A model generated the notes under the pieces. That model did no database searches. It was not told where the DNA came from and was given only the letters and a program-made list of their open reading frames with translations. A stretch of DNA of 64,000 nucleotides, from the IMG/VR virus record IMGVR_UViG_3300032291_002057, positions 14,305 to 78,304 of that record; one strand, 5' to 3'. Source of the DNA: a virus. Taxonomy: Duplodnaviria; Heunggongvirae; Uroviricota; Caudoviricetes. The position numbers were made by a program, and so were the translations under genes. This document shows positions 13,432-63,353 of this stretch, one piece after another; position 1 is the first letter of the stretch; every line of letters begins with the position of its first letter.

Positions 13432-13460
13432 ATATCTATTATTTATCACTTTGGGCTTTT

Positions 13461-17133: not shown

Positions 17134-17134
17134 C

Positions 17135-17163: not shown

Positions 17164-17169
17164 ACACAC

Positions 17170-18582: not shown

Positions 18583-18788
18583 TGAAGTTTAAAAAAATCA
18601 AGCAGGGTGAGGCTGACTTTTTAATGTCAGACGGCATCAAACTTGTACCCCGAGCATGTTTAGAAATTAGTAAAGACTGCTCACCCTATATGAAAAACGT
18701 TATTGCCGAAGCATCCCGAAGAGGATGGTTGAAATCAATTGCGTATGTTAAAGAAACAGATTTTATGTGGGAAGAATTAGCAAAATGA
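18576..18788 (+). CDS. hypothetical protein
   Basis: 70-aa ORF in an overlapping chain. Confidence 0.3.
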   Translation: MVMKFKKIKQGEADFLMSDGIKLVPRACLEISKDCSPYMKNVIAEASRRGWLKSIAYVKETDFMWEELAK

Positions 18789-39016: not shown

Positions 39017-39328
39017 ATGTCAAAAACATCAACTGAAACAAAAATTAGAATTAAACCCAATCTTGCTATCAAAGAACCTCCGTTGTTCAAGATTATCTAC
39101 ATGAATGATAATGTTACTAGTATGGAATTTGTCGTAGGTACGTTGATCGATTATTTTAATTATAATGAAGATACTGCTACTTCTATCACTCATAATATTC
39201 ATGAGGAAGGAAGTGCAATTGTTGCAGTTTTACCCTATGAAATTGCAGAACAAAAAGGCATGGAAGTAACACTTGAAGCACGTAGTCAAGGATTCCCTTT
39301 GCTAGTTAAAGTGGAATCTGAAGCCTAA
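39017..39328 (+). CDS. clpS: ATP-dependent Clp protease adaptor ClpS
   Basis: PPLFKIIYMNDNVTSMEFVVGTL matches the ClpS core (VILLNDDYTPMEFV). Confidence 0.8.
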   Translation: MSKTSTETKIRIKPNLAIKEPPLFKIIYMNDNVTSMEFVVGTLIDYFNYNEDTATSITHNIHEEGSAIVAVLPYEIAEQKGMEVTLEARSQGFPLLVKVESEA

Positions 39329-42555: not shown

Positions 42556-43146
42556 ATGAATTTAGTCCCAATCGTTTTAGAACAAACAGCAAAAGGTGAG
42601 CGTAGTTATGATATCTATTCACGCCTCTTGCGTGACCGTGTAATCTTACTTGAAGGTGAAGTACACGACCAAATGGCAAATCTTATCGTTGCCCAATTAC
42701 TTTACTTAGAAAGTGAAGGCGATAAAGATATCTCAATGTATATCAATAGCCCGGGTGGTAGTGTAACTGCTGGTATGGCTATCTATGATACAATGCAATT
42801 TATCAAACCTGAAGTTATGACAATCGTTATGGGTCAGGCTTGTTCAATGGGAAGTCTATTAGCACAAGCAGGTGCACCAAACAAACGTTTTATTCTTCCA
42901 AATGCACGACACATGATCCATCAGCCTAGTGGTGGCGCACGTGGTCAAGCAACTGATATGCTAATTCAAGTAGAAGAAATTCTTGAAATGAAACGTAACT
43001 TAACCAATATATATGTTAAACACAATTCAAAAGAAAAAACTTTTGAACAACTAACACAAGATATGGAACGTGATAATTTTATGAGTGCTGATCAAGCCGT
43101 AAATTATGGCCTTGCAGACAAAATACTTACATCACGAAATAGTTAA
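42556..43146 (+). CDS. clpP: ATP-dependent Clp protease proteolytic subunit ClpP
   Basis: Colinear match to ClpP: catalytic Ser in GQACSMGS, His in MIHQP, Asp in DNFMSAD; [21 protein letters not shown]. Confidence 0.9.
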
Positions 43147-48805: not shown

Positions 48806-49043
48806 AATGTTTGATAATATAGCCAAACAATTAGAAGTTCAAACTTTGGGTAAAACACAAAATTTAAAAATTACACAACAAGAGTTTGATGACTTTTGTA
48901 AGGGATTTTTATTTGAAATTTTAAAAGATAACAAATCATTGGGTGTAGCTTTTTGCGAAAAATATAATGAACCTAATTTTGTACTAAGTATATTACCCAA
49001 TCAATCAGCAAAAAAACATATAAAGAAATTTTACGTAAAATGA
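48806..49043 (+). CDS. hypothetical protein
   Basis: ATG right after the previous stop (internal start of track ORF 48741-49043). Confidence 0.3.
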
Positions 49044-49366
49044 CACATTTAGTAACCGAAGGTTGCATTAATTGCAAATACACAGACTGCGTAATAGTTT
49101 GCCCTGTTGATTGTTTTTACGAAGGACCTAACTTTCTGGCAATCAATCCTGATGAATGCATTGATTGTGCAGTATGTATTCCTGAATGCCCCACAAATGC
49201 TATTGTTGATGAAGCAGATTTATCAGAAGAAGAACGTAAAAAATGGTATGACATTAATGCAGAATTAGCTAAGAAATGGCCAAACATTACTAAAATGAAA
49301 CCTGCATTACCAAGTGCAGATGAATGGGCTAATAGATCAGATAAATTAATCTTTTTAGAAAAATGA
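49040..49366 (+). CDS. fdxA: 7Fe (3Fe-4S/4Fe-4S) ferredoxin, Azotobacter FdxA type
   Basis: [21 protein letters not shown]...[14 protein letters not shown] matches the FdxA cysteine pattern and its flanking residues. Confidence 0.85.
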
Positions 49367-49884
49367 TGAAACAAAAATTTGTTGACTACTTTATGGATGT
49401 TGCTGAACGCACAAGTCAATTAAGCTATGCTATACGTTTGAAGGTAGGTGCTATCATTGTTAAAGACAATAGAATCATTAGCATTGGATATAACGGTATG
49501 CCTGCAGGGTGGGACAATGACTGCGAAGATAGAGTTTGGGATTCCGGAGCAGGTGGTTGGCTTGATCCAGAAGAGATTTTAGAACAATATCCCTACGAAG
49601 GATGGCACAAAGAAGCAGGACGTAATGTTCGTTACGGACTAAAAACTAAACCGGAGGTATTACATGCAGAAACGAACGCAATCAGTAAACTCGCTAGAAG
49701 TAATGAAGCTGGCGATAATTCTACTATGTTTTGCACTCATGCTCCGTGCATTGATTGTGCTAAACTAATATACCAATCAGGTATAAAAAATCTTTATTAT
49801 CGTGATACATATCGTGATAATAAAGGATTAGAGTTTTTGGAAAAGAGTAATATCAGTGTCAATAGATACGAACACAAAAACTGA
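49363..49884 (+). CDS. dCMP deaminase (cytidine/deoxycytidylate deaminase family)
   Basis: HAETNAI and PCIDCAKLI zinc-binding motifs (H-A-E...P-C-x-x-C). Confidence 0.8.
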
Positions 49885-50056
49885 AATTATTATTGATTTT
49901 GGTCAACTAAAATCCATGATTGATTGGTTAGAGCGCAATTGTGTTGGTGAATGGGGGTATAATTGCGTTATCCCCGCAGGACGTGATGCAGGGTTGTATG
50001 AATTTTATTTTGAATCAAACAAAGATTTAGTAGCATTTAGGATTTGGAAACAATGA
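49856..50056 (+). CDS. hypothetical protein
   Basis: 66-aa ORF. Confidence 0.3.
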   Translation: MSIDTNTKTEIIIDFGQLKSMIDWLERNCVGEWGYNCVIPAGRDAGLYEFYFESNKDLVAFRIWKQ

Positions 50057-50331
50057 AATATTACACCTTTTACCGAGAGAACAATAATTTTAATGATTTA
50101 TTAAAAGATCCTATTGTTAAAAAAATTGTAGACATTAAGATTCAATGGACTAATTATCTAATGATCGGCATTGAGTCTTATTCAAATGGCAACGATCAAA
50201 ATTTTAGTTATATTACTCTTAAGTATGGCGATGATATGGTTGGTTATCTTTGTAAAGATTTTACACCAATACCTGGTGTAGATTATATTCCCGATAAGAA
50301 TAAGAGTAAATTCAATAAAGTAATTACTTAA
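50044..50331 (+). CDS. hypothetical protein
   Basis: 95-aa ORF. Confidence 0.3.
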   Translation: METMKYYTFYRENNNFNDLLKDPIVKKIVDIKIQWTNYLMIGIESYSNGNDQNFSYITLKYGDDMVGYLCKDFTPIPGVDYIPDKNKSKFNKVIT

Positions 50332-51071
50332 TACAAAGTAGAAAGCAGATATGCTTCCGGTAGTCTTGTTTTAGTATTTTTACTACCTAATAATATTACT
50401 GTTCGTATACCTTGAACGGTATCCATCATCATAACAATACAACCTCCACTTTTTGTTATCCATCCTGTTTTGCTAACAATAAAATGATGTCCGTGTTTTA
50501 CAAGCGAGTTAGTATTATGAAACTCTAAAAACTTCTTTTTATTTGTTTCTACCTTAACACTATTTTTTCCGCTTGAATTTACTATAATGGGATATTTACT
50601 TGCTGCCATTACAAGTTTAACTAAATCTTCGGCTGTGCTAATATTAGACGCAAGCAAACCAGTTGGGTCAGTAAATACGCTAGTATACATATTTAAATAT
50701 TTTGCTTTTTCATTCATAGCTTGTATGCAAGATTTTATACCACCGGGATAATATTCACAAAGCATTTTAGCCGCAGTGTTATCTGATTTTACAATAGCTA
50801 GTTCAATTAAAGTTTTTCTGGTTAGTTTTTTATTATATAAATTTTTAGGGATAGTTTCGGTCAATGATTGATTACTGTCTAAAACAACCATTACAGTCAT
50901 TAACTTAGTTATACTAGCAATAGACCTTATAGTTGAAGTGTTCGTTCCCTCCAACATTTTTCCATTTTCGTCTGCTATTAACCATGCTTGGGCAGTAACA
51001 GAAGGCATTGCGGCATTTACTAAACCAAATGAAAATAGTGATATCAATAATAAGAAAAGATGTTTAATCAT
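50328..51071 (-). CDS. D-alanyl-D-alanine carboxypeptidase (PBP5/S11 serine peptidase family), secreted
   Basis: Signal peptide; S-x-x-K (SITKLM), S-x-N (KSDNTAA) and K-T-G (SKTGWIT) motifs in canonical order. Confidence 0.7.
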   Translation of the reverse strand: MIKHLFLLLISLFSFGLVNAAMPSVTAQAWLIADENGKMLEGTNTSTIRSIASITKLMTVMVVLDSNQSLTETIPKNLYNKKLTRKTLIELAIVKSDNTAAKMLCEYYPGGIKSCIQAMNEKAKYLNMYTSVFTDPTGLLASNISTAEDLVKLVMAASKYPIIVNSSGKNSVKVETNKKKFLEFHNTNSLVKHGHHFIVSKTGWITKSGGCIVMMMDTVQGIRTVILLGSKNTKTRLPEAYLLSTLY

Positions 51072-51081
51072 TATGCAATCC

Positions 51082-51423
51082 TTAGATATTAGGGCCTTTG
51101 GGGTAAGGAATTAAATTCATTTCTATTCCATATCCAATAACGCATGACAATGTATCTTTAGTTGCGATTATAGTCCATGTTTTTGATAATGGATTAACCC
51201 AAACAGTCATTACTGTTCCGGCAGTATCACTTGTTTTTCCATACAAAAAGGGAATTTCTCGAAATGACCCGCTTAATTGTTTTATTAATTTTTCAGTTTC
51301 AAAACAGGGGATATCTGTAACTATAGATTCTACAATAGCGTTTTCTATTGGTTCTTTAGCATGTGTATTATTTGCTAGTAGCCCTATACACACCATCCCA
51401 ATCAGTAGGTAAATTTTGTTCAC
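51082..51423 (-). CDS. small secreted protein
   Basis: Signal peptide MNKIYLLIGMVCIGLLANNTHA; 113 aa; overlaps the cyclase gene end. Confidence 0.45.
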   Translation of the reverse strand: MNKIYLLIGMVCIGLLANNTHAKEPIENAIVESIVTDIPCFETEKLIKQLSGSFREIPFLYGKTSDTAGTVMTVWVNPLSKTWTIIATKDTLSCVIGYGIEMNLIPYPKGPNI

Positions 51424-53425
51424 GTAGTTCTCCTATTCTTTCAATCATCATTTCATAATAATGATCCATTTTACCGTCAAACTCTCCTTTGAGTTTATCA
51501 ATATAGTGTAACGCACTTGTCCACTTTTGTTCACGGTAATAGTCAAGCATTAGGTCATGCAACTCACGTGCCGATAGATACTCTACCATTGCGCCTGCAT
51601 CTGTTTCTAATACTGTATAGATGTTTACACCTTCTTTTTTGCCTTTAACAGCAATACAGTCTAATTCTAACACAAAATATTCGTCTTGTATATACTCTGC
51701 GGTTTTACTGCCCAATACAATTTTCACTCCGTAGGGCTTACTCTGACCTTCCAATCTACTAGCCAAATTAACGCCATCACCCAAACAAGTGTAATCAAAG
51801 CGTTGAATTGATCCCATGTTACCAACGACCACAGTATCGGTATTAATGCCAAGACCCATACCGAAAGCAGGAATACCTTCTGCCGTAACTTCTTTATTAA
51901 ATTCATCTAAACTCCCCATCATTTGTAAACCTGTACGTACAGCATTCTTTGCATGATTAATATCATCTAACGGAGCATTCCAAAATGCCATCTGTGCGTC
52001 ACCAATATACTTATCTAGTGTGCCTTCGTTCTCTATTATTTTAGCAGTCATTGCAGTCATATATCGATTCATAATCTTTGTAAGGCCTTGTACATCTTTG
52101 CCATAGTGTTCGCTGATACTAGTAAAGCCGCGAACATCTGTAAACATAATACTCAATTCACGTGATTCACCGCCAAGTTGCAATAACTTAGGATTCTTTT
52201 GTAATTTCTCAACCATAGCTGGACTCAAGTATGTCCCAAACTGTTTCTTTATTTGTTGCTTTTGTAAGAACTCGCTGATGAACTTGACACCATAGGCGTG
52301 CAGAGAGACCAAGATAATTCCAAGGGTAAACGCAGTACTGTCAAATAACCATAAAAAATTAGAGAACATATAGGCACTACCAAAGACAGCACCAACACAT
52401 AACGCAATAACCGACGCCAATCCAACATAAGTCCACCTTGTTAAAAATAATAATAACACACTTGCAATAGCTATAGCAAGTATTTCTAGTCCATCTGCAT
52501 AATCAGGTCTTTGTATAACTGATCCGTTAATCATTGTTCCGATTACAGCGGCTTGCATATCTTGTGGCCACACACTACCTATACTAGTGGGCACTGGATT
52601 GCCTAATCCTGCGGCTGCTGTACCTACTATCACAATAGCACCCTCAAAGTCTTTTGGCATATTCATTAGACTTACATTTTTGTTTACTTGGCTGTAGTCA
52701 ATCCAAATGCGACCTAAATTGTCTGTAGTTATAGGCCCGAACTTTGGTATACGCATTTTCTCAACGCCATTACTACTCAATTTAACCTGAACAGTAGAAT
52801 CACCTGCGGCTACTCTTAATGTTTCCATTGATAATGATGGGTACACCTTACCATCAACTGTTATGATTAATGGTATTCTGCGATTGACACCGTCTACTTC
52901 AGGTAGAGTACTTACGATACCTACACCTGCAGCATTGTTTTCTAACTGTGGTATGTTAGCTATTAATCCAGGATACTGAACAATTTGATTCATGTGTTCA
53001 GGGCCTAAAATCGCACTACCTGGATTACGAGGTTCGTTGCGTGTTTTATCACTGGGTATGCTTGGAAGCACAACTGGATATTTATTTAAAGTTCGTGCTA
53101 AGATTGGGTCTTGACCCAATCTATCTGAATTAGGCATAAGCACGTTGAAAACAACAAGTCCTGCATTACGTTGATACAGGTCTTCGATAATTTTTGCGTA
53201 CTCGCCTCTTGGTAAAGGCCATTGTCCATACTTAGCTAACGCATCTTCATCAATGTTAACTGTGTAAATGTTGTTAGTTGTTTTTTCTTTGTGTGTTATT
53301 AGTGTGTCAAAATAACGTAATCTAACACTTTCAACAAAGGAAGGGTCTATAGTTCTTACTAATAATACTAAGATTAATGTAAGAAGTGCAGTCCAGGGGC
53401 TTATTATTATTTTTTTAATGTCCAT
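51368..53425 (-). CDS. CHASE2-sensor membrane-anchored class III adenylate/guanylate cyclase
   Basis: N-terminal TM plus periplasmic CHASE2-like region, three central TM helices, C-terminal cyclase domain (FTDVRGFTSISE, YIGDAQMAFWNAP, GLGINTDTVVVGNMGS, LGDGVNLASRLE). Confidence 0.8.
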   Translation of the reverse strand: MDIKKIIISPWTALLTLILVLLVRTIDPSFVESVRLRYFDTLITHKEKTTNNIYTVNIDEDALAKYGQWPLPRGEYAKIIEDLYQRNAGLVVFNVLMPNSDRLGQDPILARTLNKYPVVLPSIPSDKTRNEPRNPGSAILGPEHMNQIVQYPGLIANIPQLENNAAGVGIVSTLPEVDGVNRRIPLIITVDGKVYPSLSMETLRVAAGDSTVQVKLSSNGVEKMRIPKFGPITTDNLGRIWIDYSQVNKNVSLMNMPKDFEGAIVIVGTAAAGLGNPVPTSIGSVWPQDMQAAVIGTMINGSVIQRPDYADGLEILAIAIASVLLLFLTRWTYVGLASVIALCVGAVFGSAYMFSNFLWLFDSTAFTLGIILVSLHAYGVKFISEFLQKQQIKKQFGTYLSPAMVEKLQKNPKLLQLGGESRELSIMFTDVRGFTSISEHYGKDVQGLTKIMNRYMTAMTAKIIENEGTLDKYIGDAQMAFWNAPLDDINHAKNAVRTGLQMMGSLDEFNKEVTAEGIPAFGMGLGINTDTVVVGNMGSIQRFDYTCLGDGVNLASRLEGQSKPYGVKIVLGSKTAEYIQDEYFVLELDCIAVKGKKEGVNIYTVLETDAGAMVEYLSARELHDLMLDYYREQKWTSALHYIDKLKGEFDGKMDHYYEMMIERIGELREQNLPTDWDGVYRATSK

Positions 53426-53428
53426 CTA

Positions 53429-53584
53429 CTATTTAGTAGATTTTGGTTCCTTATTATCTTCATTGTATTTGCTAGGTCCTAATTTCTTTGATTCGTCTAA
53501 TATTTTTTCAGTAGTAGGGCCACGACGGTGACGTGGCAGTTTTACTGGTTCTTTTATTCTAGGCTTTCTGTTAAACCAACTCAT
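53429..53584 (-). CDS. small basic protein (51 aa) translationally coupled to the cyclase, not in the ORF track
   Basis: RBS GGAAGGAAAAAAA-ATG on the minus strand; stop 4 nt before the cyclase ATG; MSWFNRKPRIKEPVKLPRHRRGPTTEKILDESKKLG... Confidence 0.3.
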   Translation of the reverse strand: MSWFNRKPRIKEPVKLPRHRRGPTTEKILDESKKLGPSKYNEDNKEPKSTK

Positions 53585-53598
53585 TTTTTTTCCTTCCG

Positions 53599-53620
53599 TA
53601 AAAAATCCCCTTTCGGGGAA
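53599..53620 (-). terminator. rho-independent terminator (minus strand), possibly bidirectional
   Basis: TCCCC-GAAA-GGGGA followed by TTTTTT on the minus strand. Confidence 0.55.
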
Positions 53621-53622
53621 TA

Positions 53623-53826
53623 TTATTTGTAAAAATATTCATATGCTTTATTTTTAGCTTCCACTTCATCCAACGCAAGCAATGTCACTTGTGCAGTTTT
53701 TCCTTTTATTGTCATGTCAAAAGGAATTGTTCCCGAAAACATAAAATCTTCCGGTAGTTCTACTGTAACTGTATGTTCAGTAAGATTTTTTATTCTATTA
53801 ATTATGTCTTTCATCAATATTGCCAT
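53623..53826 (-). CDS. hypothetical small cytoplasmic protein ending the curli-like operon
   Basis: 67-aa ORF with RBS GGAG on the minus strand. Confidence 0.4.
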   Translation of the reverse strand: MAILMKDIINRIKNLTEHTVTVELPEDFMFSGTIPFDMTIKGKTAQVTLLALDEVEAKNKAYEYFYK

Positions 53827-53849
53827 CCTAAAATGCTCCTATATTGTAT

Positions 53850-54431
53850 TTAGTTCTTTATGTAATTCCACGTACCTCCGCAACCAAAATTACAATTTAT
53901 CAACATACTTGCAGAATCCGGAGCTGATCCTGTTTGCTGAACGTTCACCGTTGATCCTATTGCTCCGTTTAAGTTAACTTGAAACCATTTATTTGCACCT
54001 ACTCCACCTGATTGAGTAGCGTTTATATTGTTTCCATTATTAGTAGAACCATTCCAATTATCCACATTAAATGTATGACTTCCTACACCACTCTGATTTA
54101 CATTTATGCCATTATTAGATCCATTTAGATTTATAACACTTGCAGTATGATTACCAGTGCCTTGTTGATTGACATTGATGTTATTATAAATTCCTGCATT
54201 TAAAGTAATACTAGTGGTTTTTATTCCTGGATCTTGTTGTGTTACATTGATAGAGTTATTATTCGCATTAATTGCTTTACCCATTACAATACTAGTAATA
54301 TGCTGGTCATCAGTTTGATTAACTGTGATTGTGTTATTGTCACCTATTTGGTCAATATGTACGTTTGGTGATGGTTGTGCAAATGATATAGAACAAAAAA
54401 ATAAAAGAATAATAAATCTCATTTTAATCAC
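53850..54431 (-). CDS. secreted curlin-repeat protein (CsgA/CsgB-like amyloid subunit candidate 2)
   Basis: Sec signal; repeated S/N-x5-Q-x-G-x-G-N-x-A-x3-Q-like units (IDQIGDNNTITVNQ, INVNQQGTGNHTASV, INVNQSGVGSHTFNV, NINATQSGGVGANKW); Asn/Gln/Gly-rich. Confidence 0.65.
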   Translation of the reverse strand: MIKMRFIILLFFCSISFAQPSPNVHIDQIGDNNTITVNQTDDQHITSIVMGKAINANNNSINVTQQDPGIKTTSITLNAGIYNNINVNQQGTGNHTASVINLNGSNNGINVNQSGVGSHTFNVDNWNGSTNNGNNINATQSGGVGANKWFQVNLNGAIGSTVNVQQTGSAPDSASMLINCNFGCGGTWNYIKN

Positions 54432-55533
54432 TCTGCCTTAATGTAATTATTGTATTGCCACCTTGATTTATACGGTTGTTAACTTCAAAACTTCCCTGAA
54501 CCATAGATACTAATGAATTTTGTGTTCGGGGAGTTTGCACACATGCAATGTTGCTCCCTGCATCTTCTCTACATAACTGAACAGACAAATCATCCACAGC
54601 AACTTTGACACCTGTCAATGCATTATAATCCGGTAACAATTTTCCGTCAATAGTATTCAGTACATTCAGTTGCGCTGCCAGTTGCATATTAATTAGATCC
54701 AATACATTAACTAAAAAGTCTTGTTCTAAAAAGTTTTGACTAAGTTTGTCTTGCCACATTTCTTTTTCTATTTTATCTAACTCATTTATTAATTTGTTTT
54801 CAGCAAGAAAGTCTACATCTAACGACCCTGATGCATTTACTCTTACTGTTGATCTTTCTTCTTTAAATTCTTTAGGTGGACTAACAATAATCATGTTATT
54901 AATTTCAATGTCAGTGAGTTTTAAAATTACTGACTTAAGTGAACTACGCGGTGTTTCTACACGTGTTGCTTGAAATGCTTGATTTAGTATAATAGTCCCA
55001 ATTTCATTAGTGATACTGATTTCACCCACTTTACAATCACGGTCAATTACTTTCCAATTAGGAGGACAACTAGGTAGTAATATAACTGTGCTACGACCTA
55101 TTTCATCAACACTAGCAGTAAAATCAGTACCACGAACACTGATTGTAGCGGTTGGAGTGTTAACTGAGACATTTTGAGGAGAGTTTTTAGCAATTTGTCC
55201 ACTAGCATATCTTACAGTCCCTAAAGCTACTTTCATCCCTAATTTACCAACTTTGCTTTTAGGGTCATAAACAAAATCATCAATTACTAATCTACTGTTT
55301 TCAGTAATTTGAACTTTGGTGTCATCATCAAATGTTATCCCTGCTTTGCCTTGAACTGTTCTCACCGCATCGTTCATTTCTACTGCGGTGCCTTTCTTCC
55401 CATCCACGGTCGTCTTCTGTCGTTGTATCGAAGCTGGGTTGTTGGATATCTCTGTTATTGTCCCAATCCCCGCGACGGCGTGCAGAGATATACTTAGCAA
55501 CAATAAACATTTTAGCTGGTTCCATATTTTCAT
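54424..55533 (-). CDS. secreted protein with FecR-like beta-sandwich region, embedded between the two curlin genes
   Basis: Signal peptide; ISVRGTDFTASV resembles the FecR domain core (RGT-x-F). Confidence 0.45.
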   Translation of the reverse strand: MKIWNQLKCLLLLSISLHAVAGIGTITEISNNPASIQRQKTTVDGKKGTAVEMNDAVRTVQGKAGITFDDDTKVQITENSRLVIDDFVYDPKSKVGKLGMKVALGTVRYASGQIAKNSPQNVSVNTPTATISVRGTDFTASVDEIGRSTVILLPSCPPNWKVIDRDCKVGEISITNEIGTIILNQAFQATRVETPRSSLKSVILKLTDIEINNMIIVSPPKEFKEERSTVRVNASGSLDVDFLAENKLINELDKIEKEMWQDKLSQNFLEQDFLVNVLDLINMQLAAQLNVLNTIDGKLLPDYNALTGVKVAVDDLSVQLCREDAGSNIACVQTPRTQNSLVSMVQGSFEVNNRINQGGNTIITLRQSD

Positions 55534-55542
55534 TAATACACC

Positions 55543-56346
55543 TTATTTTGTATTACTGTTTATAGTGAATGTGTTACCGTTACCAGTTGTTTTAATACTA
55601 ACTATACTGTTTCCACTTGTTCCGGCTTGTGTGATATCAAACGTATTATTACTTCCACCTGCACTTCCGTCAACAGTAGTACTATGTCCACTTCCGGTTC
55701 CACTGTCTTGTGTTAACGTAATTTTGTTTCCTGTTCCGTTAGTTGTAATAGAGTTAGTTGCGGCAACTACTGCGGTAGTTGCACCGGCAGTATATGTAAA
55801 CTCATTACCTGCACCACCTGTCATACTAACCGTAGTGCTTGTATTTGAACCAGTAATGCTAGCAAGAACTACTTGATTTACACCACCGTATTGAGTAGTA
55901 TTCAACGTATTCTGTGAACCGTTAATAGTTACATTAGCAGTAGAACCATCTGCTGTGTTGCCACTTGTACCTTGCACAACAGATATTGTGTTATTGTCAC
56001 AAGTTTTACCACCTGATGCATCACAACTAATATTTGCGGTAGAATTATTACCTTGCATTGTATAAGTTAATGAATTATTACTTCCTAAATTACCTGCATT
56101 CAACGCAAGTTTTAACAAGTTACTACTACCTATTTGGTCTATAAGTACAGTGGTGCCATTCCCATATATTCTGGCATCATCATCACTTGCTACCCCAGGA
56201 CCTTTTACGGTATTACCCGCGCCGTCTTGGGTCATAGTGATAGTGCTATTATCACCTATCTGGTCAATATAAATTTTATTATCTGCGGCAAAAGCAGAAA
56301 CCATATATAATGCCATCATTGTTATTATTATTTTTTTCAATGACAT
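55543..56346 (-). CDS. secreted curlin-repeat protein (CsgA/CsgB-like amyloid subunit candidate 1)
   Basis: Sec signal MSLKKIIITMMALYMVSAFAA; repeated IDQIGDNSTITMTQDG / LIDQIGSSN units; G/N/T/S-rich beta-solenoid-like repeats. Confidence 0.6.
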   Translation of the reverse strand: MSLKKIIITMMALYMVSAFAADNKIYIDQIGDNSTITMTQDGAGNTVKGPGVASDDDARIYGNGTTVLIDQIGSSNLLKLALNAGNLGSNNSLTYTMQGNNSTANISCDASGGKTCDNNTISVVQGTSGNTADGSTANVTINGSQNTLNTTQYGGVNQVVLASITGSNTSTTVSMTGGAGNEFTYTAGATTAVVAATNSITTNGTGNKITLTQDSGTGSGHSTTVDGSAGGSNNTFDITQAGTSGNSIVSIKTTGNGNTFTINSNTK

Positions 56347-56349
56347 TTT

Positions 56350-57153
56350 TTATTTTTCCTTTGTGTTAAGTTCAGCGTACTTCCATATGCCTTTACGCTC
56401 TCCTTCCTTTATTAACTCTATCACACTTGCTTCAATGGCACTCTTAACTGCAAATGTTCCGGGCTCATTTATCGTGACCCCTGTTTCAAACTCAAATGCA
56501 TTAGTACCGGCATCTAAAAACTTCAATGCTGAAATACTATCACTTGCGCTTAAAATTCTTTTTTGTACTGTTACTGTTATTAAAACTTCTCCAGTACTTA
56601 CACTAATTGCTCTTAAACTTACAGTTACAATATCTTCACTATATTGTGTCTGTGGCCCTACTCCTAACCAACGAGCAGCCATACCACCTGATTTTACAGA
56701 ACTATCATATCCTATAATTCCACCGTCAAGTATTATACCTGCGAACTTCAATGGTGTTAAAGGTTTTGCATTTGGTCCTTCATATGCTTCACGCATTTGA
56801 CGAATGATAGTGCGCTCACGTGTCAATGCATCAATACTAACTCTTTCTATAACAGTAAACCATTTACCTTTTCCAACATCTTGTAATGCTTTGATTAAGA
56901 ATGTTTCTGCACCTTGTGTAACCGCTGTACTTAAACTTGCTATGTTTGCTTGTGGTCTACGCTGTCCTGTTTTATCAGCAAAACTATAAACTGCTACTGT
57001 CATAGGCGCTGATGCCGGTAACGGCACCAAATCAATATCACGTGCCATTTTTGTAGGCACTATCTCAGGTTCGCTGCCGCCCTTTTCTAAGTAGCTTATA
57101 GCACATCCTGACAATGAAAATATCAAACATAGTAATAAAAATTTTTGTTTCAT
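56350..57153 (-). CDS. csgG: curli production assembly/transport outer-membrane lipoprotein CsgG
   Basis: Lipobox LSGC; colinear similarity to E. coli CsgG: VAVYSFADKTGQ, STAVTQGAETFLIKALQD, GGIIGYDSSVKSGGMAARWLGVGPQTQY, VSLRAISVSTGEVL. Confidence 0.9.
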   Translation of the reverse strand: MKQKFLLLCLIFSLSGCAISYLEKGGSEPEIVPTKMARDIDLVPLPASAPMTVAVYSFADKTGQRRPQANIASLSTAVTQGAETFLIKALQDVGKGKWFTVIERVSIDALTRERTIIRQMREAYEGPNAKPLTPLKFAGIILDGGIIGYDSSVKSGGMAARWLGVGPQTQYSEDIVTVSLRAISVSTGEVLITVTVQKRILSASDSISALKFLDAGTNAFEFETGVTINEPGTFAVKSAIEASVIELIKEGERKGIWKYAELNTKEK

Positions 57154-57602
57154 TAAAATTGAAATTGTCCTAATGGTACTGTTATTTGTGTGCTAGTCCC
57201 TGTAGTATCTGTTACTGTTAGATATACATTGCTAGAATCCTTACTCCAAAAAATAGTATTCCCTTCAAAGTTTAGTGTTCCAGAACTACTACCGCCATTT
57301 GCAAACATAGCAGTGGCTAAGTTTTGACTAATCTGTGCATAGATACGACTTTCTAAGTTATTTAAAAATTTCTGTAAATTCGTGTTTTTTGCATCAGAAG
57401 CTGCCTTATCAATTGCTGCCTGTATAGCATCTTTCATGGCTTTTTTTCTAGTGGATTCTTGATTCTCAATTGTTAACACATGACTGCTATAACCTTGGCC
57501 GTTAAAACTAGGACTTTTAAAACTATAATCAGGCAACGGAGCACTATACACAACACTTGTGCAAGTTAATAACGTCAACAATAATATAGGTTTTGTATCC
57601 AT
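57153..57602 (-). CDS. csgF: curli assembly protein CsgF
   Basis: Signal peptide; mature N-terminus FKSPSFNGQGYS (compare FQFRNPNFGG in E. coli CsgF) and C-terminal TGTSTQITVPLGQFQF. TAATG overlap with csgG, same order as E. coli csgFG. Confidence 0.7.
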   Translation of the reverse strand: MDTKPILLLTLLTCTSVVYSAPLPDYSFKSPSFNGQGYSSHVLTIENQESTRKKAMKDAIQAAIDKAASDAKNTNLQKFLNNLESRIYAQISQNLATAMFANGGSSSGTLNFEGNTIFWSKDSSNVYLTVTDTTGTSTQITVPLGQFQF

Positions 57603-57678
57603 AGTTTTGATAAATATATATAATATTTAGTTGATATATATCAATAAAATATTAGATTACATAACAAAAGGGATAAAT

Positions 57679-57960
57679 ATGGACCAGTTTTTGAAGTTAG
57701 TAGCCGAAGTAGGTTTTCCTATAGCAGCCGCATGCGGTGCAGGATATTTTGTATTTTTAACATTAAAATTTATTCTTGCTGGAGTGACGAGTAGTGTTAA
57801 CGGCATTAAAGGTATTATTGGTGCATTAGATAATCGTGTTAAAACCATGAACCATGATGTTGTACGTATTGATGTTACAGTAAGTAATGCTTTAGGGTTA
57901 AGACCAGACGTTGACCGCATTGCACGTGCTGACGGCAAAAATGACGCAAGGAGAGACTAA
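57679..57960 (+). CDS. small membrane protein (GFPxxAAxGxGY family, paralog 1)
   Basis: RBS AAAAGGGATAAAT-ATG; MDQFLKLVAEVGFPIAAACGAGYFVFL TM segment. Start chosen inside track ORF 57631-57960. Confidence 0.4.
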   Translation: MDQFLKLVAEVGFPIAAACGAGYFVFLTLKFILAGVTSSVNGIKGIIGALDNRVKTMNHDVVRIDVTVSNALGLRPDVDRIARADGKNDARRD

Positions 57961-58154
57961 TGCGGCATTTTGATTACGAGTGGGATTTGAATCCTGATTC
58001 AATTATCTTTGACAAAGAATTAGACACTAATAAATTAGGTTGGAAAATAGGTGAGTACTGGAAATCAGTAGAAGTAGACGGAAGATTAATGTTTAGAAAA
58101 GTAGATAAGTTAGAAGAATTTATATTAAAAGGAGTTGATAATGGAAATAGCTGA
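57960..58154 (+). CDS. hypothetical protein
   Basis: 64-aa ORF, TAATG overlap. Confidence 0.3.
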   Translation: MRHFDYEWDLNPDSIIFDKELDTNKLGWKIGEYWKSVEVDGRLMFRKVDKLEEFILKGVDNGNS

Positions 58155-58479
58155 AATGATAAACAAATATGGATTTCCTGTGATTGCCGCAGGTGGCATG
58201 GGATACTTGATATACTATGTTTGGGAATGGGCTACCAAAGAAATCAAACCTGTTTTAAGTGAGGCAAACACCACTTTAATTGCATTGATTGACCGAATTC
58301 GTATGTTAGATAATGACCTAATTAGGTTACAACAGAAGGTAAATACTACTTTACATTTGCGCGGGAAAATTATAGAATCAGAACGTGTATTAGAAGCACA
58401 TAAAGTAGATAATGAAGCTGAAAATAAATTTAAAAGTGCAATTGATGACAAGAAAACTGCAGGTAGTGGTGAAGGATAA
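58135..58479 (+). CDS. small membrane protein (GFPxxAAxGxGY family, paralog 2) with coiled-coil tail
   Basis: KYGFPVIAAGGMGYLIYYVW parallels paralog 1. Confidence 0.4.
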   Translation: MIMEIAEMINKYGFPVIAAGGMGYLIYYVWEWATKEIKPVLSEANTTLIALIDRIRMLDNDLIRLQQKVNTTLHLRGKIIESERVLEAHKVDNEAENKFKSAIDDKKTAGSGEG

Positions 58480-58523
58480 ATTATCCAAACATAAGTATAC
58501 GATAAATATTTCTACCAAAGCAG

Positions 58524-58552
58524 TTGACAACACATTAATTAATTAGTATCAT
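58524..58552 (+). promoter_or_regulatory. sigma70-like promoter (TTGACA-17-TATCAT)
   Basis: Located 8 nt upstream of the unlisted 59-aa ORF. Confidence 0.4.
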
Positions 58553-58559
58553 TATAAGT

Positions 58560-58739
58560 ATGACGAAACCCAATCCCGGACAAGATAATGTCCGATACGA
58601 AGTTATAACCCAAGAAGATGGTGATGATGTATTGTTGCCCATTCCACAAATTTTATTAGATCAAATGGGATGGAAAGAAGGAGACACCATAGATTTTGGG
58701 CTGGATCAAGAAGGTCGTTATATTTTAAAGAAAATCTAA
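58560..58739 (+). CDS. AbrB/MazE-like (swapped-hairpin) small DNA-binding protein, 59 aa, not in the ORF track
   Basis: VLLPIPQILLDQMGWKEGDTIDFGLDQEGRYIL matches the SpoVT/AbrB-MazE beta-hairpin pattern. Confidence 0.35.
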   Translation: MTKPNPGQDNVRYEVITQEDGDDVLLPIPQILLDQMGWKEGDTIDFGLDQEGRYILKKI

Positions 58740-58740
58740 C

Positions 58741-59139
58741 ATGAGTACAAATTTAAATTCAGGTACTTACACTATTGGAGATAACCTTACAGAAAATTTC
58801 CCTAGTATTAGTGTAACAAGTATTGACCCCGGATATATATTTACAACAAACAATACCGGTGCTAGTTCTTGGAATTGGGGTAATATTACTACTGATCCAA
58901 ATTTACAAGGTGCTTCTATTCAAATTAAAGGTGACGCTGAGTTTGATGGTGAAGTTACTATCAAGGGCAAGAACATAGCTGATATGTTTGCCAAGATTGA
59001 AGAACGATTGGCTATTCTTCATCCAAATGAAAAACTAGAAGAAAAATGGGATGAGTTAAAAGAATTGGGTAAACGCTATAAAGAACTTGAAGCCGAAATC
59101 ATAGAGAAAGAAAAGATTTGGGATATACTAAAAAAGTAG
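58741..59139 (+). CDS. hypothetical protein with C-terminal coiled coil
   Basis: 132-aa ORF. Confidence 0.4.
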   Translation: MSTNLNSGTYTIGDNLTENFPSISVTSIDPGYIFTTNNTGASSWNWGNITTDPNLQGASIQIKGDAEFDGEVTIKGKNIADMFAKIEERLAILHPNEKLEEKWDELKELGKRYKELEAEIIEKEKIWDILKK

Positions 59140-59200: not shown

Positions 59201-59596
59201 ATGACAATGCACCTCGCACATCCTGCCCTAACTATGGGCGGCAAACGTAAAGGCAAAACTAAATTCAAGAATTCAGCAGAGGCTCAAAAAGCCCGTGATC
59301 TTGATGCATCTTGGAAAGAATTACAAAAAAAGTGGGGAGTTGAGCAAGAAAACAAGAAACGTAAACGTGCGTTATCTCAACCTACACTCAGTTATAAACT
59401 GTCTGCCCCTCCGGGTCGTTCAACTAGCAATCATATTCCATCACTCAACACTGGTGACGGTATTGCATCTGCAAAAAAGATTCCACAGTATACTGGAACT
59501 AAAATTATTGGCATTGGTACCATGCATAAATCTAATGCTGTACCTATCTTTAGTGACGAGCAAGCAAAAGATATTTCAACAATGCGCCGAAATTAA
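59201..59596 (+). CDS. hypothetical basic protein (start uncertain)
   Basis: Frame of track ORF 59171-59596, trimmed to the first ATG downstream of the promoter -10; no clear SD. Confidence 0.3.
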
Positions 59597-59618
59597 AAGG
59601 AGTTTTAAAGGTAACCAA

Positions 59619-59834
59619 ATGGCTAAAGAAGAAGGCATTAAAATGGATGGCAAGGTAATTGACGTATTACCCAACGCTATGTTTCGTATTGAGATGGATC
59701 CGGGCAACACAGTGACGGGTTACATTAGTGGCCGTATGCGTAAGCATGATATTAAGATTCTACTAGGAGATACAGTAGAAATTGAGTTTAGTCCTTATGA
59801 CTTGACTAAAGGAAGAATTGTAAGGCGTAGGTAA
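59619..59834 (+). CDS. infA: translation initiation factor IF-1
   Basis: [71 protein letters not shown] is a near full-length match to bacterial IF-1; AAAAGGAG upstream. Confidence 0.85.
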
Positions 59835-60457: not shown

Positions 60458-61206
60458 GATGGTATAATGATTTTATTGGACTGGATGAAAATAACAGTGT
60501 AATTCCTTTCTTAACTGGTGATAGCGAAGAAAGTTTTAAAAAAAATTTACTAACCACACCCGAAGATTGGTACTATCGTAATGTACCTATCACATATCAA
60601 TATAATAAGCTAGGGCATAGAAGCAAAAATATTGATGAGATTGATTTAGAAAACTACATCTTATTCACTGGATGTAGTCACACCACAGGCATTGGTTTAG
60701 AATTAGAAAAAACATTTCCCGATATCGTTAGTAAAAAACTAGGTTATGATTATTACAATTTATCTATGCCCGGAACAGGTATAGATATCCTAGAATACAA
60801 TTTGTTAACATGGTTTGCAAAAGTAAAGAAAAAACCAAAACTAGTATGTATTCAATGGCCTGATCATAGTAGATATATGTCATTTCATCCTGAATATGTA
60901 CGTATGATAGAACGAGGAACTTGGGATAAAGAAAAAGATAATATTGCATTAGTGGTGAACTGTGAAGATTCTGGTTTATTCTATGCTAGGAAAAAATTAG
61001 CTGTAAATCTCATCAACAATGTAGTTAATTGCCCTATAATTTCAGTTAACTTTGGTAACCAAAGTCAATATGATTTAGAAAATTTTGTCATGAAGCGTAT
61101 AGATTTGGCAAGAGATTTAGGACATGCCGGGATAAAATCAAATGAAATCTTTGCCAATGACATATATAAAAAAATGACTGAAATCTTGTGTCCAAAAGAT
61201 AAATAA
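60454..61206 (+). CDS. SGNH-like hydrolase family protein (paralog C)
   Basis: NKLGHRSKNIDEIDLENYILFTGCSHTTGIGLE...YYNLSMPG; ATGA overlap with paralog B. Confidence 0.45.
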   Translation: MRWYNDFIGLDENNSVIPFLTGDSEESFKKNLLTTPEDWYYRNVPITYQYNKLGHRSKNIDEIDLENYILFTGCSHTTGIGLELEKTFPDIVSKKLGYDYYNLSMPGTGIDILEYNLLTWFAKVKKKPKLVCIQWPDHSRYMSFHPEYVRMIERGTWDKEKDNIALVVNCEDSGLFYARKKLAVNLINNVVNCPIISVNFGNQSQYDLENFVMKRIDLARDLGHAGIKSNEIFANDIYKKMTEILCPKDK

Positions 61207-61766
61207 TGACTATGCGTGACATTATTACATTATTGGAAGATAAAGCAAAACCCCAAGATATTGAAATCATCCCACTAAATTTCACTCCAAATGAAGTTAG
61301 TCCAGTACTGTCTAAAGATACATTAGAATTACATTACGGAAAACTTGCCCATGGATATGCAGAACGATATAACAAGGGTGAGGGTGACAAAGATTTTAAC
61401 TATGCAGGTGCATTCTTACATAATACATTATTCCCTCAATTCCGTGAAGTTATAAACAATAACAAACCTAATGGTCCTATGTATGGATTTATCAATAAAC
61501 ACTATGGTGATTATGATAACATGAAAAGTGAATTTGAAACTGAAGCTATGAAGATACAAGGCTCAGGATGGATTTACTTAGCTAATGACGGGAAGATAAA
61601 AACAATACCAAACCATCAAGTTCGCAATGATATATTGTTATTGATTGACTGGTGGGAACATGCTTGGATATTAGACTACGGTGCAGATAAAAAGAAGTAT
61701 TTAAAAGAGCAATGGAAAATAATTAACTGGAATGTAATTAATACACGCTGGGGTCGATCATTGTGA
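61206..61766 (+). CDS. Fe/Mn superoxide dismutase-like protein (divergent)
   Basis: LELHYGKLAHGY (compare YHYGKHHQTY), FLHNTLF (compare NHSIFW), GSGWIYL (compare GSGWAWL), DWWEHAWILDY (compare DVWEHAYYLDY). Confidence 0.55.
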   Translation: MTMRDIITLLEDKAKPQDIEIIPLNFTPNEVSPVLSKDTLELHYGKLAHGYAERYNKGEGDKDFNYAGAFLHNTLFPQFREVINNNKPNGPMYGFINKHYGDYDNMKSEFETEAMKIQGSGWIYLANDGKIKTIPNHQVRNDILLLIDWWEHAWILDYGADKKKYLKEQWKIINWNVINTRWGRSL

Positions 61767-63025
61767 GAGCAAAAGAGATACAACCCAGTAAATTAGTAAT
61801 ATTTGATATAGATGATACTTTAGTCCATACACAAACTAAGGTACATGTTATCAAAGACGGCAAAGTAATTAAAAGCCTTAATAGCCACGACTTCACACAC
61901 TACAAACTACAGCCCGAAGAATCATTTGACTTCGGCGATTTTGCCAATGCAGAAGAATTCTTTATCAATGCTAAACCAATCATACCAATGATGAATCAAC
62001 TTAAACGTGATATAGCAACTGGTAATAAGGTTGTTATGGTCACTGCCCGTAGTGATTTTAATGACAAAGAATTGTTTTTAGATACCTTCCGTAAATATGG
62101 AATAGATATGAGTAAAGTCCACGTATATCGTGCAGGCAATATAGTCAGTAAGATTCCTACAGAAGAAAAGAAAAAAATAATTATAAAAAATCTATTAGAT
62201 AAAAATAATTATACAAAAACAATTATGTATGATGATGCTATTCCTAATCTACATGCATTTATGAGTTTAAAGAAAGATTATCCAAACACTAAATTTTATG
62301 CATGGCATGTAAGTTTAGACGGAGAAGCTAGTGAATATAGTAGAACCGATGAAGGTATTATAGAAGCTGAAGAAGACACACCCAACGCTAGAGAAATTTC
62401 AAACACTTTACTAAAAGCCGGTTACAAACAATTAGGAAGCGGTGCAGATTCTACAGTCTGGTCAAAAGACGAGGGCAGTGTTATAAAAATTATTATGCCT
62501 GAAGAGGGTGAAGCTATCACTACGGCAGCTAACACTTTCTATAAGTTTTATGAATTCTGTCAGAAAAATAAAGGTGTTCCCAACTTACCCAAGTTTATAG
62601 ATATAGGTGGAAAACATCATGCTACCTTTGAGATAAACGGCAAAGAATATCTACAAATTGCTATGGAAAGATTATATCCTATTCCAAACAATAGCGTACA
62701 GGAGGCACTAGTGTGGGCATTATCAGATTTTGTTCTTAGTCACACACCTTGGAATAAAGTTATTTCTACAATTAATAACACTGAATATTTTAAAAACTAT
62801 GAAACGGCAAATGTTCAACAAATTGAACAAGCAGTAAAACAAACACTAAGTAATAAACAAGAAAACGAAAAATATCATTATCTGTATGAATTGATGAGAT
62901 TAGTATATGCAACCGGAAGAATAAACAAGGTGGGTTGGGATTTACATACAGAAAACGTTATGATGCGTAAGAATGGTGAATTAGTGATAATTGACCCGTG
63001 GTTTGCAATGAATGAAGGATCATAA
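61763..63025 (+). CDS. fusion of HAD-superfamily phosphatase (N) and protein-kinase-like/phosphotransferase domain (C)
   Basis: N-terminal [12 protein letters not shown] (HAD motif I D-x-D-x-T); C-terminal DLHTENVMM...IIDPWFA resembles the kinase catalytic loop and DFG-equivalent. Confidence 0.5.
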
Positions 63026-63026
63026 T

Positions 63027-63353
63027 ATGCTAACAGTAACAGAATCAGCACAATCTAAAATAGCAGAAATTTTAGCAGAAGAAAACAATCCTAGTTTAAA
63101 ACTACGTATGTTTGTACAAGGTGGCGGATGTAGTGGAATGCAATATGGATTCACACTTGATGAAGCAATAAACGAGGACGATTTTCAAATTGATGCTGGT
63201 TTGTCAAGTGTCCTAGTTGATGCAATGTCTGCACAATACGTTACCGGTGCGGAAATTGATTACGTAGATGACCTGCAAGGATCAAGATTTAGTATAAAAA
63301 ACCCACAAGCTACTACAACTTGTGGATGCGGGAGTAGTTTTAGTCCCGGATAA
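63027..63353 (+). CDS. erpA: A-type iron-sulfur cluster carrier protein (ErpA/IscA, HesB family)
   Basis: [19 protein letters not shown] and C-terminal [10 protein letters not shown]; close colinear match to ErpA. Start at 63027 ATG (track ORF starts at 63012). Confidence 0.8.

Follow-up and report, generated by a model that had tools for sequence, protein, structure and literature searches.

The DNA analysed here (hereafter the window) is a stretch of 64,000 nucleotides (nt) from a virus of the class Caudoviricetes (IMG/VR record IMGVR_UViG_3300032291_002057, positions 14,305 to 78,304). Its minus strand carries a gene for a 685-amino-acid (aa) protein that joins a CHASE2 sensor to a class III nucleotidyl cyclase domain and lies within a cassette of curli genes. 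We consider it very likely that this protein is a CHASE2 adenylate cyclase and a member of the published viral module that unites a type VIII secretion system (T8SS), FecR and an adenylate cyclase (AC). The cassette occupies a 7.3-kb minus-strand block (50328-57602) that runs opposite to most neighbouring genes, and the GC skew flips across it. In order of transcription, the block contains CsgF, CsgG, a curlin-repeat protein, a FecR-domain protein, a second curlin-like protein, the small open reading frame (ORF) orf67, a hairpin, the small ORF orf51, the cyclase, orf113 and an endopeptidase.

The domain make-up proposed by an earlier, sequence-only reading, a 685-aa frame with a CHASE2-like sensor and a class III catalytic domain, was borne out by a Pfam search, in which CHASE2 (PF05226) matches residues 16-324 (E=3.5e-38, 132 bits against a cut-off of 26.3) and Guanylate_cyc (PF00211) matches residues 422-604 (E=7e-19, 68.6 bits against a cut-off of 21.9). 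The protein also matches phrog_35576 over its full length (2.9e-245). Kyte-Doolittle hydropathy places one transmembrane (TM) helix, TM1, ahead of CHASE2 at about residues 8-25 and three peaks behind it (residues 310-328, 336-354 and 357-375), and the AlphaFold model has helices at residues 310-330, 332-357 and 363-396 in a long-helix stretch spanning residues 310-396. The earlier count of three TM helices therefore holds for the segment between the sensor and the cyclase domain, but the total is four once TM1 is included. With its profile match, its single TM helix on the N-terminal side and three more ahead of the output domain, the protein has the layout usual for CHASE2 proteins: N-terminus inside, TM1, periplasmic CHASE2, TM2-4 and a cytoplasmic catalytic domain. 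The CHASE2 region is modelled with a predicted local distance difference test score (pLDDT) of about 85-97, and a Foldseek search with this domain returned no matching solved structure. The C-terminal extension folds into three helices in the AlphaFold model (pLDDT about 90), ends in the conserved motif LPxDWDGVYRATSK and is kept across the phage family and the alphaproteobacterial homologues, with alignments that reach residue 685; the cyclase of Pelagibacter phage HTVC008M is without it.

Alignment to solved cyclases and viral homologues shows a complete catalytic hexad, formed by D430, K472, D476, T546, N553 and R557. The metal-binding aspartates are D430, in the motif FTDVRGFT, and D476, in IGDAQM, while K472 and T546 form the base-recognition pair, and N553 and R557, within VNLASRLE, form the transition-state pair. 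The four residues on which the sequence-only reading had staked its cyclase assignment, the metal-binding Asp pair and the Asn/Arg pair, are thus all in place, and both metal-binding Asp, the Lys and the Arg are kept in 88 of 88 full-length viral homologues. In a phmmer search of the Protein Data Bank (PDB) with the catalytic domain, the best match is 6FHT (2.6e-34), an engineered adenylate cyclase derived from Cya2 with Lys at the first specificity position, followed by Cya2 (2W01, 9e-29) and Pseudomonas aeruginosa CyaB (3R5G, 7e-27). The hexad aligns residue by residue with that of the class IIIb enzyme CyaB (FSDIRGFT, DKFVGD and DYTIIGREVNLASRLE); the catalytic motifs of the two, including VNLASRLE, are near-identical, and CyaB is also a Foldseek match. 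The likeness to CyaB is limited to the catalytic domain, and the sensor of CyaB is a MASE2 membrane domain, not CHASE2. Every catalytic residue of the phage cyclase sits on a single chain, and class III cyclases of this kind are expected to act as homodimers. Class IIIb enzymes with a Lys/Thr pair are also expected to respond to bicarbonate.

The base-recognition positions separate adenylate cyclases, which have Lys together with Thr or Asp, from guanylate cyclases, which have Glu together with Cys, Gly or Ser. In CyaB the specificity motifs are 'DKFVGD ... DYTIIG', giving the same Lys/Thr pair as K472/T546, whereas the guanylyl cyclase Cya2 has 'DEFMGD ... KYGVVG', in which the two positions are Glu and Gly. 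Lys472/Thr546 is the class IIIb signature, which favours cyclic AMP (cAMP) as the predicted product. The sequence-only reading had allowed either cAMP or cyclic GMP (cGMP); the first stands as a prediction, and cGMP was rejected as a candidate on the contrast with the Glu/Gly pair of Cya2.

Selection on the gene was assessed against relatives 68-79% identical, for which the proportion of synonymous differences (pS) is about 0.7 (saturated) and that of nonsynonymous differences (pN) is 0.15-0.23. The resulting dN/dS, where computable, is 0.08-0.17, a low value that indicates purifying selection on the cyclase gene rather than a remnant. The hexad reads DKDTNR in 73 of the 88 full-length viral homologues, this window included, and DKDSNR in HTVC008M. 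Comparison of cyclase residues 420-605 (window 51614-52168) with related loci, here given by their locus numbers (L010, L013, L025, L026, L028, L054, L063, L067, L072, L085, L086, L089, L091 and L001), shows two catalytic-domain alleles within the viral cyclase family. In L010 and L013, identity to the window's cyclase is 77-80% in CHASE2 and the C-terminal tail and 55% in the catalytic domain, a mosaic indicating that the output domain has been exchanged by recombination.

The best cellular matches, taken from a plasmid/replicon collection rather than from GTDB species genomes, are alphaproteobacterial CHASE2 cyclases that align end to end, including the tail. An Ensifer cyclase is 34% identical over residues 5-685 (E=1e-111), Paracoccus and Shinella cyclases are each 31% identical, and CyaK of Sinorhizobium meliloti is about 40% identical over residues 329-664. 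A FecR-domain gene adjoins the cyclase in all four annotated bacterial loci (Ensifer, Shinella, Paracoccus and S. meliloti Ak57), and the N-terminus of the phage FecR protein, with its signal peptide and FecR domain, is 33% identical to the FecR neighbour of the Ensifer cyclase (E=1.5e-14). On the Ensifer and Shinella replicons (L093-L094) the FecR-cyclase pair lies beside an NHLP-type bacteriocin export ATP-binding cassette (ABC) system. On the Paracoccus replicon (L095) it lies beside a gene for a patatin-like phospholipase with a cyclic nucleoside monophosphate (cNMP)-binding domain and a DUF3307 gene; a DUF3307 ORF is also found in the window (19239-19604). In S. meliloti, the neighbour of cyaD1, SMc02177, contains a FecR domain, and a CyaD1 that lacks CHASE2 produces cAMP constitutively (PMC5498481). 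For the CHASE2 cyclases of S. meliloti, the cue is an extracellular protein sensed via the outer-membrane barrel NsrA; cAMP then rises, and Clr, a CRP-like regulator, mediates the effect (PMC13001267).

The phage FecR protein opens with a signal-peptide-like segment, its FecR domain starts at about residue 57, and it lacks both an anti-sigma domain and a TM helix. In its structural model, the only matches of the N-terminal beta domain are to the periplasmic cell-surface-signalling domains of BDI_1681 and of PupR (6OVK), the latter solved in complex with the signalling domain of an outer-membrane transducer. A weak Foldseek match was seen between the C-terminal beta domain (residues about 309-366, window 54436-54609, pLDDT about 60-66) and the 'cell surface anchoring domain' of 5IX9 (62 columns, root-mean-square deviation 1.3, 27% identity, E=0.08). 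The phage FecR-like protein thus corresponds to the periplasmic half of FecR/PupR regulators only, and the partners of an anti-sigma regulator, an extracytoplasmic function (ECF) sigma factor and a TonB-dependent receptor, were not found among the scanned ORFs of the window. The missing anti-sigma domain, the match to the periplasmic part of PupR and the pairing with CHASE2 all argue for a periplasmic relay or co-sensor rather than an iron regulator. From the bacterial loci we infer joint inheritance, from an alphaproteobacterium, of the FecR-like protein and the CHASE2 cyclase as a signalling pair.

The remaining genes of the cassette are packed closely (Table 1). From CsgF to the second curlin-like gene the gaps or overlaps are ≤23 nt, and spacing of a few nt is the rule in the block except around the hairpin. 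The sequence-only reading had the cyclase immediately downstream of the curli operon; it is downstream and on the same strand, but orf67, the hairpin and orf51 intervene. Signal-peptide-like N-termini are found in CsgF, CsgG, both curlin-like proteins, the FecR-domain protein and the endopeptidase, while hydropathy gives neither a signal peptide nor a TM helix for orf51 and orf67, and the cyclase is a predicted inner-membrane protein. In the second curlin-like protein the Curlin_rpt match is below threshold (E=0.019), and orf67 matches no Pfam or PHROG family. A search of positions 49000-59000 against Rfam found no riboswitch or other known RNA at E ≤0.1, and a sigma-70 promoter scan returned 42 sites where 35.5 were expected, a difference that carries no information.

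Table 1. Features of the curli-cyclase cassette, in order of transcription, and of the divergent genes beside it. Positions are those of the window; residues are those of the cyclase.
Feature	Position	Strand	Evidence
CsgF	57153..57602	-	Pfam CsgF PF10614, 1.7e-14
CsgG outer-membrane channel lipoprotein	56350..57153	-	Pfam PF03783 1.1e-45; NCBIfam PRK15184 1.2e-50; lipobox LSGC
Curlin-repeat protein, 267 aa, CsgA/B analogue	55543..56346	-	Pfam Curlin_rpt PF07012 7.2e-10
FecR-domain protein, 369 aa, signal peptide	54424..55533	-	Pfam FecR PF04773 2.3e-10; phrog_37870
Second curlin-like secreted protein, 193 aa, signal peptide	53850..54431	-	BLASTP clustering with the 267-aa curlin-repeat protein
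orf67, small ORF, 67 aa	53623..53826	-	Weak homologue in L003 only
Terminator-like hairpin, TCCCCGAAAGGGGA then T6, between orf67 and orf51	53605..53621	-	Scan, about -9.3 kcal/mol
orf51, small basic predicted cytoplasmic protein, 51 aa	53429..53584	-	Sequence, homologues
CHASE2-sensor class IIIb adenylate cyclase, 685 aa, ATG start	51368..53425	-	ORF, Pfam, PHROG
CHASE2 sensor domain, predicted periplasmic, residues 16-324	52454..53380	-	Pfam, hydropathy, AlphaFold
Three TM helices, about residues 313-378, chain back to cytoplasm	52292..52489	-	Hydropathy, AlphaFold
Class III catalytic domain, residues 422-604	51614..52162	-	Pfam, phmmer against PDB, residue table
C-terminal helical extension, residues 606-685	51371..51610	-	Conservation, AlphaFold
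orf113, 113 aa, signal peptide, accessory	51082..51423	-	Follows cyclase in 9 loci
PBP7-like D-Ala-D-Ala endopeptidase, accessory	50328..51071	-	Peptidase_S11 2.3e-33; PRK11669 1.4e-44; 7 loci
Two paralogous small TM/coiled-coil proteins and a 64-aa ORF, divergent from CsgF	57631..58479	+	

At the 3' side of the cyclase gene, the predicted start of orf113 overlaps the cyclase by 56 nt. L010 and L013 likewise have the pair of orf113 and PBP7-like endopeptidase after the cyclase, and several further loci have one of the two there. Their position after the cyclase hints that peptidoglycan remodelling is tied to the cassette. On the other side, divergent from CsgF, lie two paralogues (57631-57960, likely start 57679, and 58135-58479) and the 64-aa ORF (57960-58154). 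Each paralogue, about 93-114 aa long, combines a TM helix at its N-terminus with a conserved coiled-coil segment (ALDNR..MN.D..R.D), and neither has a Pfam match at E ≤0.1. Their family (phrog_18771) stands beside CsgF in 71 of 77 cassette loci, with counterparts gp011/gp012 in HTVC008M and gp97/gp98 in Methylophilales phage Melnitz. A 'histidine kinase' beside CsgF, the label given by Wittmers et al. (2022), was considered and rejected, since the proteins there have 93 and 114 aa, are too short and match no Pfam family.

The sequence-only reading had also pointed to a basic 51-aa reading frame directly ahead of the cyclase. This frame, orf51, is real: it belongs to a family conserved with pN below pS, found in 9-10 of about 90 related loci and without exception inside the cassette (homologues in L003, L010, L013, L041, L054, L056/57 and L067). 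The protein has 15 Lys and Arg against 7 Asp and Glu, the family shares the N-terminal motif MSW[FY].(R/K).P...P.K.P.H..SP..EK, and no Pfam, PHROG or PADLOC match was found; HTVC008M and Melnitz are without it. An AAGGA Shine-Dalgarno-like sequence lies upstream of orf51, whose 3' end reads TAG-TAG-ATG, with 3 nt from its stop to the cyclase ATG, and no Shine-Dalgarno sequence occurs within about 20 nt of that ATG. Translational coupling of the two genes, as suggested earlier, agrees with this spacing and the missing Shine-Dalgarno sequence here, but not with the spacing in relatives: the homologue lies about 54 nt from the cyclase in L003, and between CsgG and the curlin gene in L010, L013, L041, L056 and L067. 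As the position of orf51 in the cassette varies, the coupling-like spacing is local to this window, where coupling by termination and reinitiation is plausible.

Between orf67 and orf51 lies the terminator-like hairpin. The closest relative, L003, has a stronger hairpin in the same place, with a 6-bp GC stem (GGCCCCGAAAGGGGCC then T6), and in the window the hairpin lies too close to orf51 for a promoter to fit between them. The hairpin may be an attenuating terminator, through which orf51 and the cyclase would be expressed at a lower level than the structural genes.

Among cultured phages, tblastn against 50,697 phage records found full-length cyclase homologues only in HTVC008M and four Melnitz isolates. 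A look-up in the assembly index gave no entry for the window's own protein. The gene is gp019 in HTVC008M and gp104 in Melnitz, labelled adenylate/guanylate (guanylyl) cyclase in GenBank, and HTVC008M gp014-019 and Melnitz gp99-104 have the same order of CsgF, CsgG, curlin, FecR, curlin and cyclase. The window thus resembles the pelagiphage T8SS-FecR-AC module in gene set and order, in being preceded by one or two small membrane proteins and in the cyclase family phrog_35576. It differs in having two small ORFs and a hairpin before the cyclase, in the divergent orientation of the small membrane-protein pair, and in the distance of its cyclase, which is only 40% identical to that of Melnitz over 96% of its length and 37% identical to that of HTVC008M over 84%. 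The carrier differs as well. The window's DNA ligase is ≤34% identical to that of any cultured phage, with the best matches among Bacillus-type phages, and the window shares synteny with a 328-kb NCBI contig (GCA_902729695.1, CACVCT010000001), on which ClpX, S21, GroES/EL, HSP20 and ClpS adjoin the cassette. Both observations indicate that the carrier belongs to a large uncultured phage lineage and is not a T4-like pelagimyophage. Many cyclase relatives lie on contigs of 250-375 kb, and a literature search joining jumbo phages with curli or CsgG found no paper.

At least 574 IMG/VR contigs carry a relative of the cyclase. In neighbourhoods anchored on the best 80 of these, CsgF, CsgG and FecR lie beside the cyclase in nearly all loci with enough flank, and in a search anchored on CsgG (64 loci) a full-length cyclase is present in 17 of the 18 loci with enough flank. 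Linkage of cyclase and cassette is thus seen across about 140 metagenomic viral loci. It persists where the curli block is inverted relative to the cyclase (L005, L012, L016, L018, L020 and others) and where the two are several kb apart.

The cassette also has variants. Some have a stand-alone gene of 105-116 aa directly upstream of CsgF, homologous to cyclase residues about 567-664 and covering the last strands of the catalytic fold and the helical tail, with no Pfam family (L109:9132-9482, L145:9159-9476, L147:5083-5409 and about 16 further CsgG-anchored loci). These variants are without the pair of small TM paralogues, and in L109 there is no full cyclase within 8.9 kb downstream. In L109 an autotransporter (PF03797) and a phosphate-selective porin O/P (PF07396) follow FecR (15264-18976), and in 7 loci (e.g., L011:4979-6973) a protein of about 660 aa with a signal-peptide-like start and no Pfam match stands between FecR and the cyclase. 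The cassette island looks like a general outer-membrane remodelling module.

A search of GTDB species genomes gave 9 loci (L084-L092) on contigs of metagenome-assembled genomes (MAGs) assigned to at least five bacterial lineages, under the labels Bacteroidetes, Luteolibacter, Rhodobacteraceae, Pelagibacter, Pirellulales and Marivivens. All of those long enough for flanks carry cassette genes, which indicates that they are probably mis-binned phage DNA, and they were set aside as cellular homologues. Cassette contigs within MAGs call for caution in host prediction.

Elsewhere in the window, genes for nucleotide metabolism and modification cluster at 1132-7705 and suggest DNA modification of the 7-deazaguanine type. 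The first is for a GMP reductase/IMPDH-like protein (1132-2163) and is followed by those for GTP cyclohydrolase I (3305-3979), a cytidylyltransferase-like protein (4562-5032), a P-loop kinase (5029-5826), a 6-pyruvoyl-tetrahydropterin synthase (PTPS)/QueD-like protein (6123-6662) and a weak radical S-adenosylmethionine (SAM) match of QueE type (6851-7705). Cell-type genes comprise ClpX (36975-38180), HSP20 (38502-38954), ClpS (39017-39328), ClpP (42556-43146), IF-1 (59295-59834), Fe/Mn superoxide dismutase (61206-61766) and an IscA-like Fe-S assembly protein (63012-63353). UvdE (13422-14477), the ATP-dependent DNA ligase (29864-31213), an SPFH/Band 7 protein (31605-32408) and a ferredoxin with dCMP deaminase (49040-49884) are also present.

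The sequence-only reading implied that a cyclase beside viral curli genes was new, which goes too far: the association was published in 2022. Viral T8SS genes together with FecR and adenylate cyclase were described in podo- and myo-pelagiphages, phylogenies of FecR and of the cyclase led to an inferred alphaproteobacterial origin, and FecR and cyclase were noted not to be parts of bacterial curli operons (Wittmers et al., 2022, mSystems; PMC9599517). The same study found viral T8SS components and viral FecR expressed in metatranscriptomes, and viral curli modules at all 65 GOV2.0 ocean stations; it took FecR as an iron regulator and did not mention CHASE2 (PMC9599517). Viral curli genes were also described, with no mention of the cyclase, by Zaragoza-Solas et al. 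(2020) and Buchholz et al. (2022). The present analysis adds the CHASE2 assignment and the adenylate cyclase call from the Lys/Thr pair. It also adds the FecR-CHASE2 pairing, seen at four bacterial loci and read as inherited, the finding of the cassette on very large viral contigs, the distinction of two catalytic-domain alleles, and the description of the orf51 family and of the hairpin conserved in L003.

Two cellular systems offer points of comparison. The phage cyclase shares its end-to-end architecture, including the C-terminal extension, with S. meliloti CyaD1, CyaD2 and CyaK (about 31-40% identity), and in the case of CyaD1 a FecR-domain gene (SMc02177) adjoins the cyclase as well. In the S. 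meliloti system CHASE2 is autoinhibitory and cAMP is triggered from outside via an outer-membrane protein. Unlike the phage enzyme, these cyclases are cellular, have no T8SS nearby and have an identified receptor, Clr, and target genes; plant uL2, which is their signal, has no bearing on a phage of aquatic bacteria. The second system is from Burkholderia, where FecR/LysM proteins are paired with CHASE2 histidine kinases (PMC5192318). This 'BiofilmReg' arrangement likewise places a secreted FecR-domain protein beside a TM-CHASE2-3TM sensor in an operon linked to control of biofilm and matrix, but it is cellular, its output is a histidine kinase with a response regulator, and its FecR protein carries LysM.

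We propose that the window encodes a phage-borne, receptor-type class IIIb adenylate cyclase in a FecR-linked curli cassette, which would turn an envelope cue into cAMP, and we give this reading a probability of about 0.6. A FecR-CHASE2 pair would have been joined to a viral T8SS cassette. During infection, an apparatus of the outer membrane and periplasm would be built from the pore (CsgG/CsgF), curlin-like subunits and the FecR-like protein, and the last of these could pass an envelope or surface cue to CHASE2. The CHASE2 signal would then relieve autoinhibition of the cyclase, and cytoplasmic cAMP would rise. The receptor for cAMP, which is not encoded nearby, could belong to the host, as a member of the CRP family or another cNMP-binding protein, or be a phage protein that escaped recognition. 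The conserved pairing of FecR and CHASE2 favours envelope sensing over simply flooding the cell with cAMP. We hold the relay from FecR to CHASE2 tentatively, at somewhat under even odds, and any one signal or output that might be named is unlikely to be the right one.

Several observations weigh against this reading. The AlphaFold monomer of the catalytic domain is poor (pLDDT 33-70), so no structural argument is drawn from it, and catalysis is a prediction for all viral members of the family. In 14 of the 88 full-length viral homologues, including Melnitz, the hexad reads DKDDSR, with Ser in place of the transition-state Asn, and activity in this sub-type could be low. The hairpin parts the cyclase from the curli genes in the window, so that co-expression is not guaranteed. 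Contact between FecR and CHASE2 is read from gene neighbourhood, and a full cyclase is missing beside FecR in at least one variant cassette (L109) and, as reported, in some podophages (PMC9599517), which means that FecR cannot depend on CHASE2 alone. Finally, a cNMP-binding domain (PF00027) was not found among window ORFs of at least 100 aa in a Pfam search of concatenated pseudo-proteins, and HTVC008M and Melnitz gave no match to an E. coli CRP probe.

Further searches for a cAMP receptor or curli regulator gave the same picture. A low-sensitivity phmmer search of about 14,900 ORFs, drawn from the window and 97 loci, gave nothing with the cNMP domains of E. coli CRP and of the Paracoccus protein as queries, and tblastn with CRP against the 50,697 phage records matched 13 records, none of them cassette-bearing. 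Canonical curli control runs through CsgD or cAMP-CRP, and no Pfam family of a CsgD-type (LuxR/GerE) regulator or a CRP-type receptor was found among window ORFs of at least 100 aa.

That no phage-encoded receptor was found fits a host receptor, and with it the alternative that cAMP from the phage enzyme drives the host's CRP-family regulon, the link to curli being that of a co-inherited, horizontally acquired block. The predicted adenylate cyclase activity and the dependence of characterised relatives on the CRP-like Clr would suit such a takeover. We nevertheless consider it unlikely, since linkage to CsgF, CsgG and FecR survives inversion, multi-kb insertions and transfer between unrelated phage lineages, which argues for selection on the gene set, and since the sensor is conserved (median CHASE2 identity 62%), so that activity is presumably gated by a signal and not constitutive.

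The company kept by bacterial FecR-cyclase pairs, which sit with export or envelope effectors (NHLP; patatin phospholipase), raises a second alternative, in which the cyclase, via cAMP or its C-terminal helical module, would gate CsgG/CsgF or the supply of curlin and would not report to the cell on its surroundings. Cassettes without a full cyclase keep the stand-alone homologue of the C-terminal region upstream of CsgF, and the cassette is without CsgE, the usual periplasmic gate (PMC9599517). Such control of secretion seems to us less likely still: no cassette protein has a cNMP-binding domain, the T8SS is without a known cytoplasmic component that could be the target of cAMP, and the basis of the proposal is neighbourhood and one small homologue.

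A bolder extension of the envelope-sensing reading, which we regard as a long shot, is that the cassette is a self-contained trans-envelope sense organ of the phage, with the curlin fibre and pore as antenna, FecR as relay and cAMP as output. If this were true, an infected cell whose host has none of these parts could feel neighbours, aggregation or superinfecting phages, and lysis or progeny production could be timed accordingly; borrowed bacterial signalling parts would then do what lysis inhibition does in T4.

It is very improbable that the enzyme makes a different nucleotide, cGMP or a PycC-like cyclic pyrimidine, for instance one that interferes with host immune signalling. PADLOC PycC models do match the catalytic domain (best 5.4e-22), with which PycC shares a homologous class III fold, and the second-best solved match is the guanylyl cyclase Cya2. 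The PycC models, however, are themselves class III homologues and score lower (76 bits) than CyaB (97) and 6FHT (122), Lys472/Thr546 is of the purine type and the same as in ATP-using CyaB, unlike the Glu/Gly of Cya2, and the nearest cellular relatives are of the CyaD/CyaK type, with a cAMP-dependent pathway in S. meliloti. Unlike Pycsar, the phage cyclase has a membrane sensor architecture and no adjacent effector (a cNMP-binding TM or TIR protein): neither a PADLOC effector match nor PF00027 was found among the cyclase neighbours or in the window. A Pycsar or defence role was rejected, as the PycC matches are explained by the shared fold. That the gene travels with the curli genes as an inactive remnant is scarcely credible, for although a minority of homologues have Ser for Asn at the transition-state position and HTVC008M lacks the C-terminal extension, the 685-aa frame is intact, the hexad is complete, dN/dS is about 0.1 and related viral contigs number at least 574.

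Phage curli modules are abundant, and their function is puzzling since curli genes are missing from the known hosts, SAR11 and OM43. Within the viral module only the cyclase and the FecR-like protein are obviously regulatory, and reading them as a CHASE2 receptor with a FecR partner offers a testable signalling model in place of an 'iron regulator'. The window and its relatives further indicate that the curli module has spread to phages much larger than the pelagiphages in which it was described.

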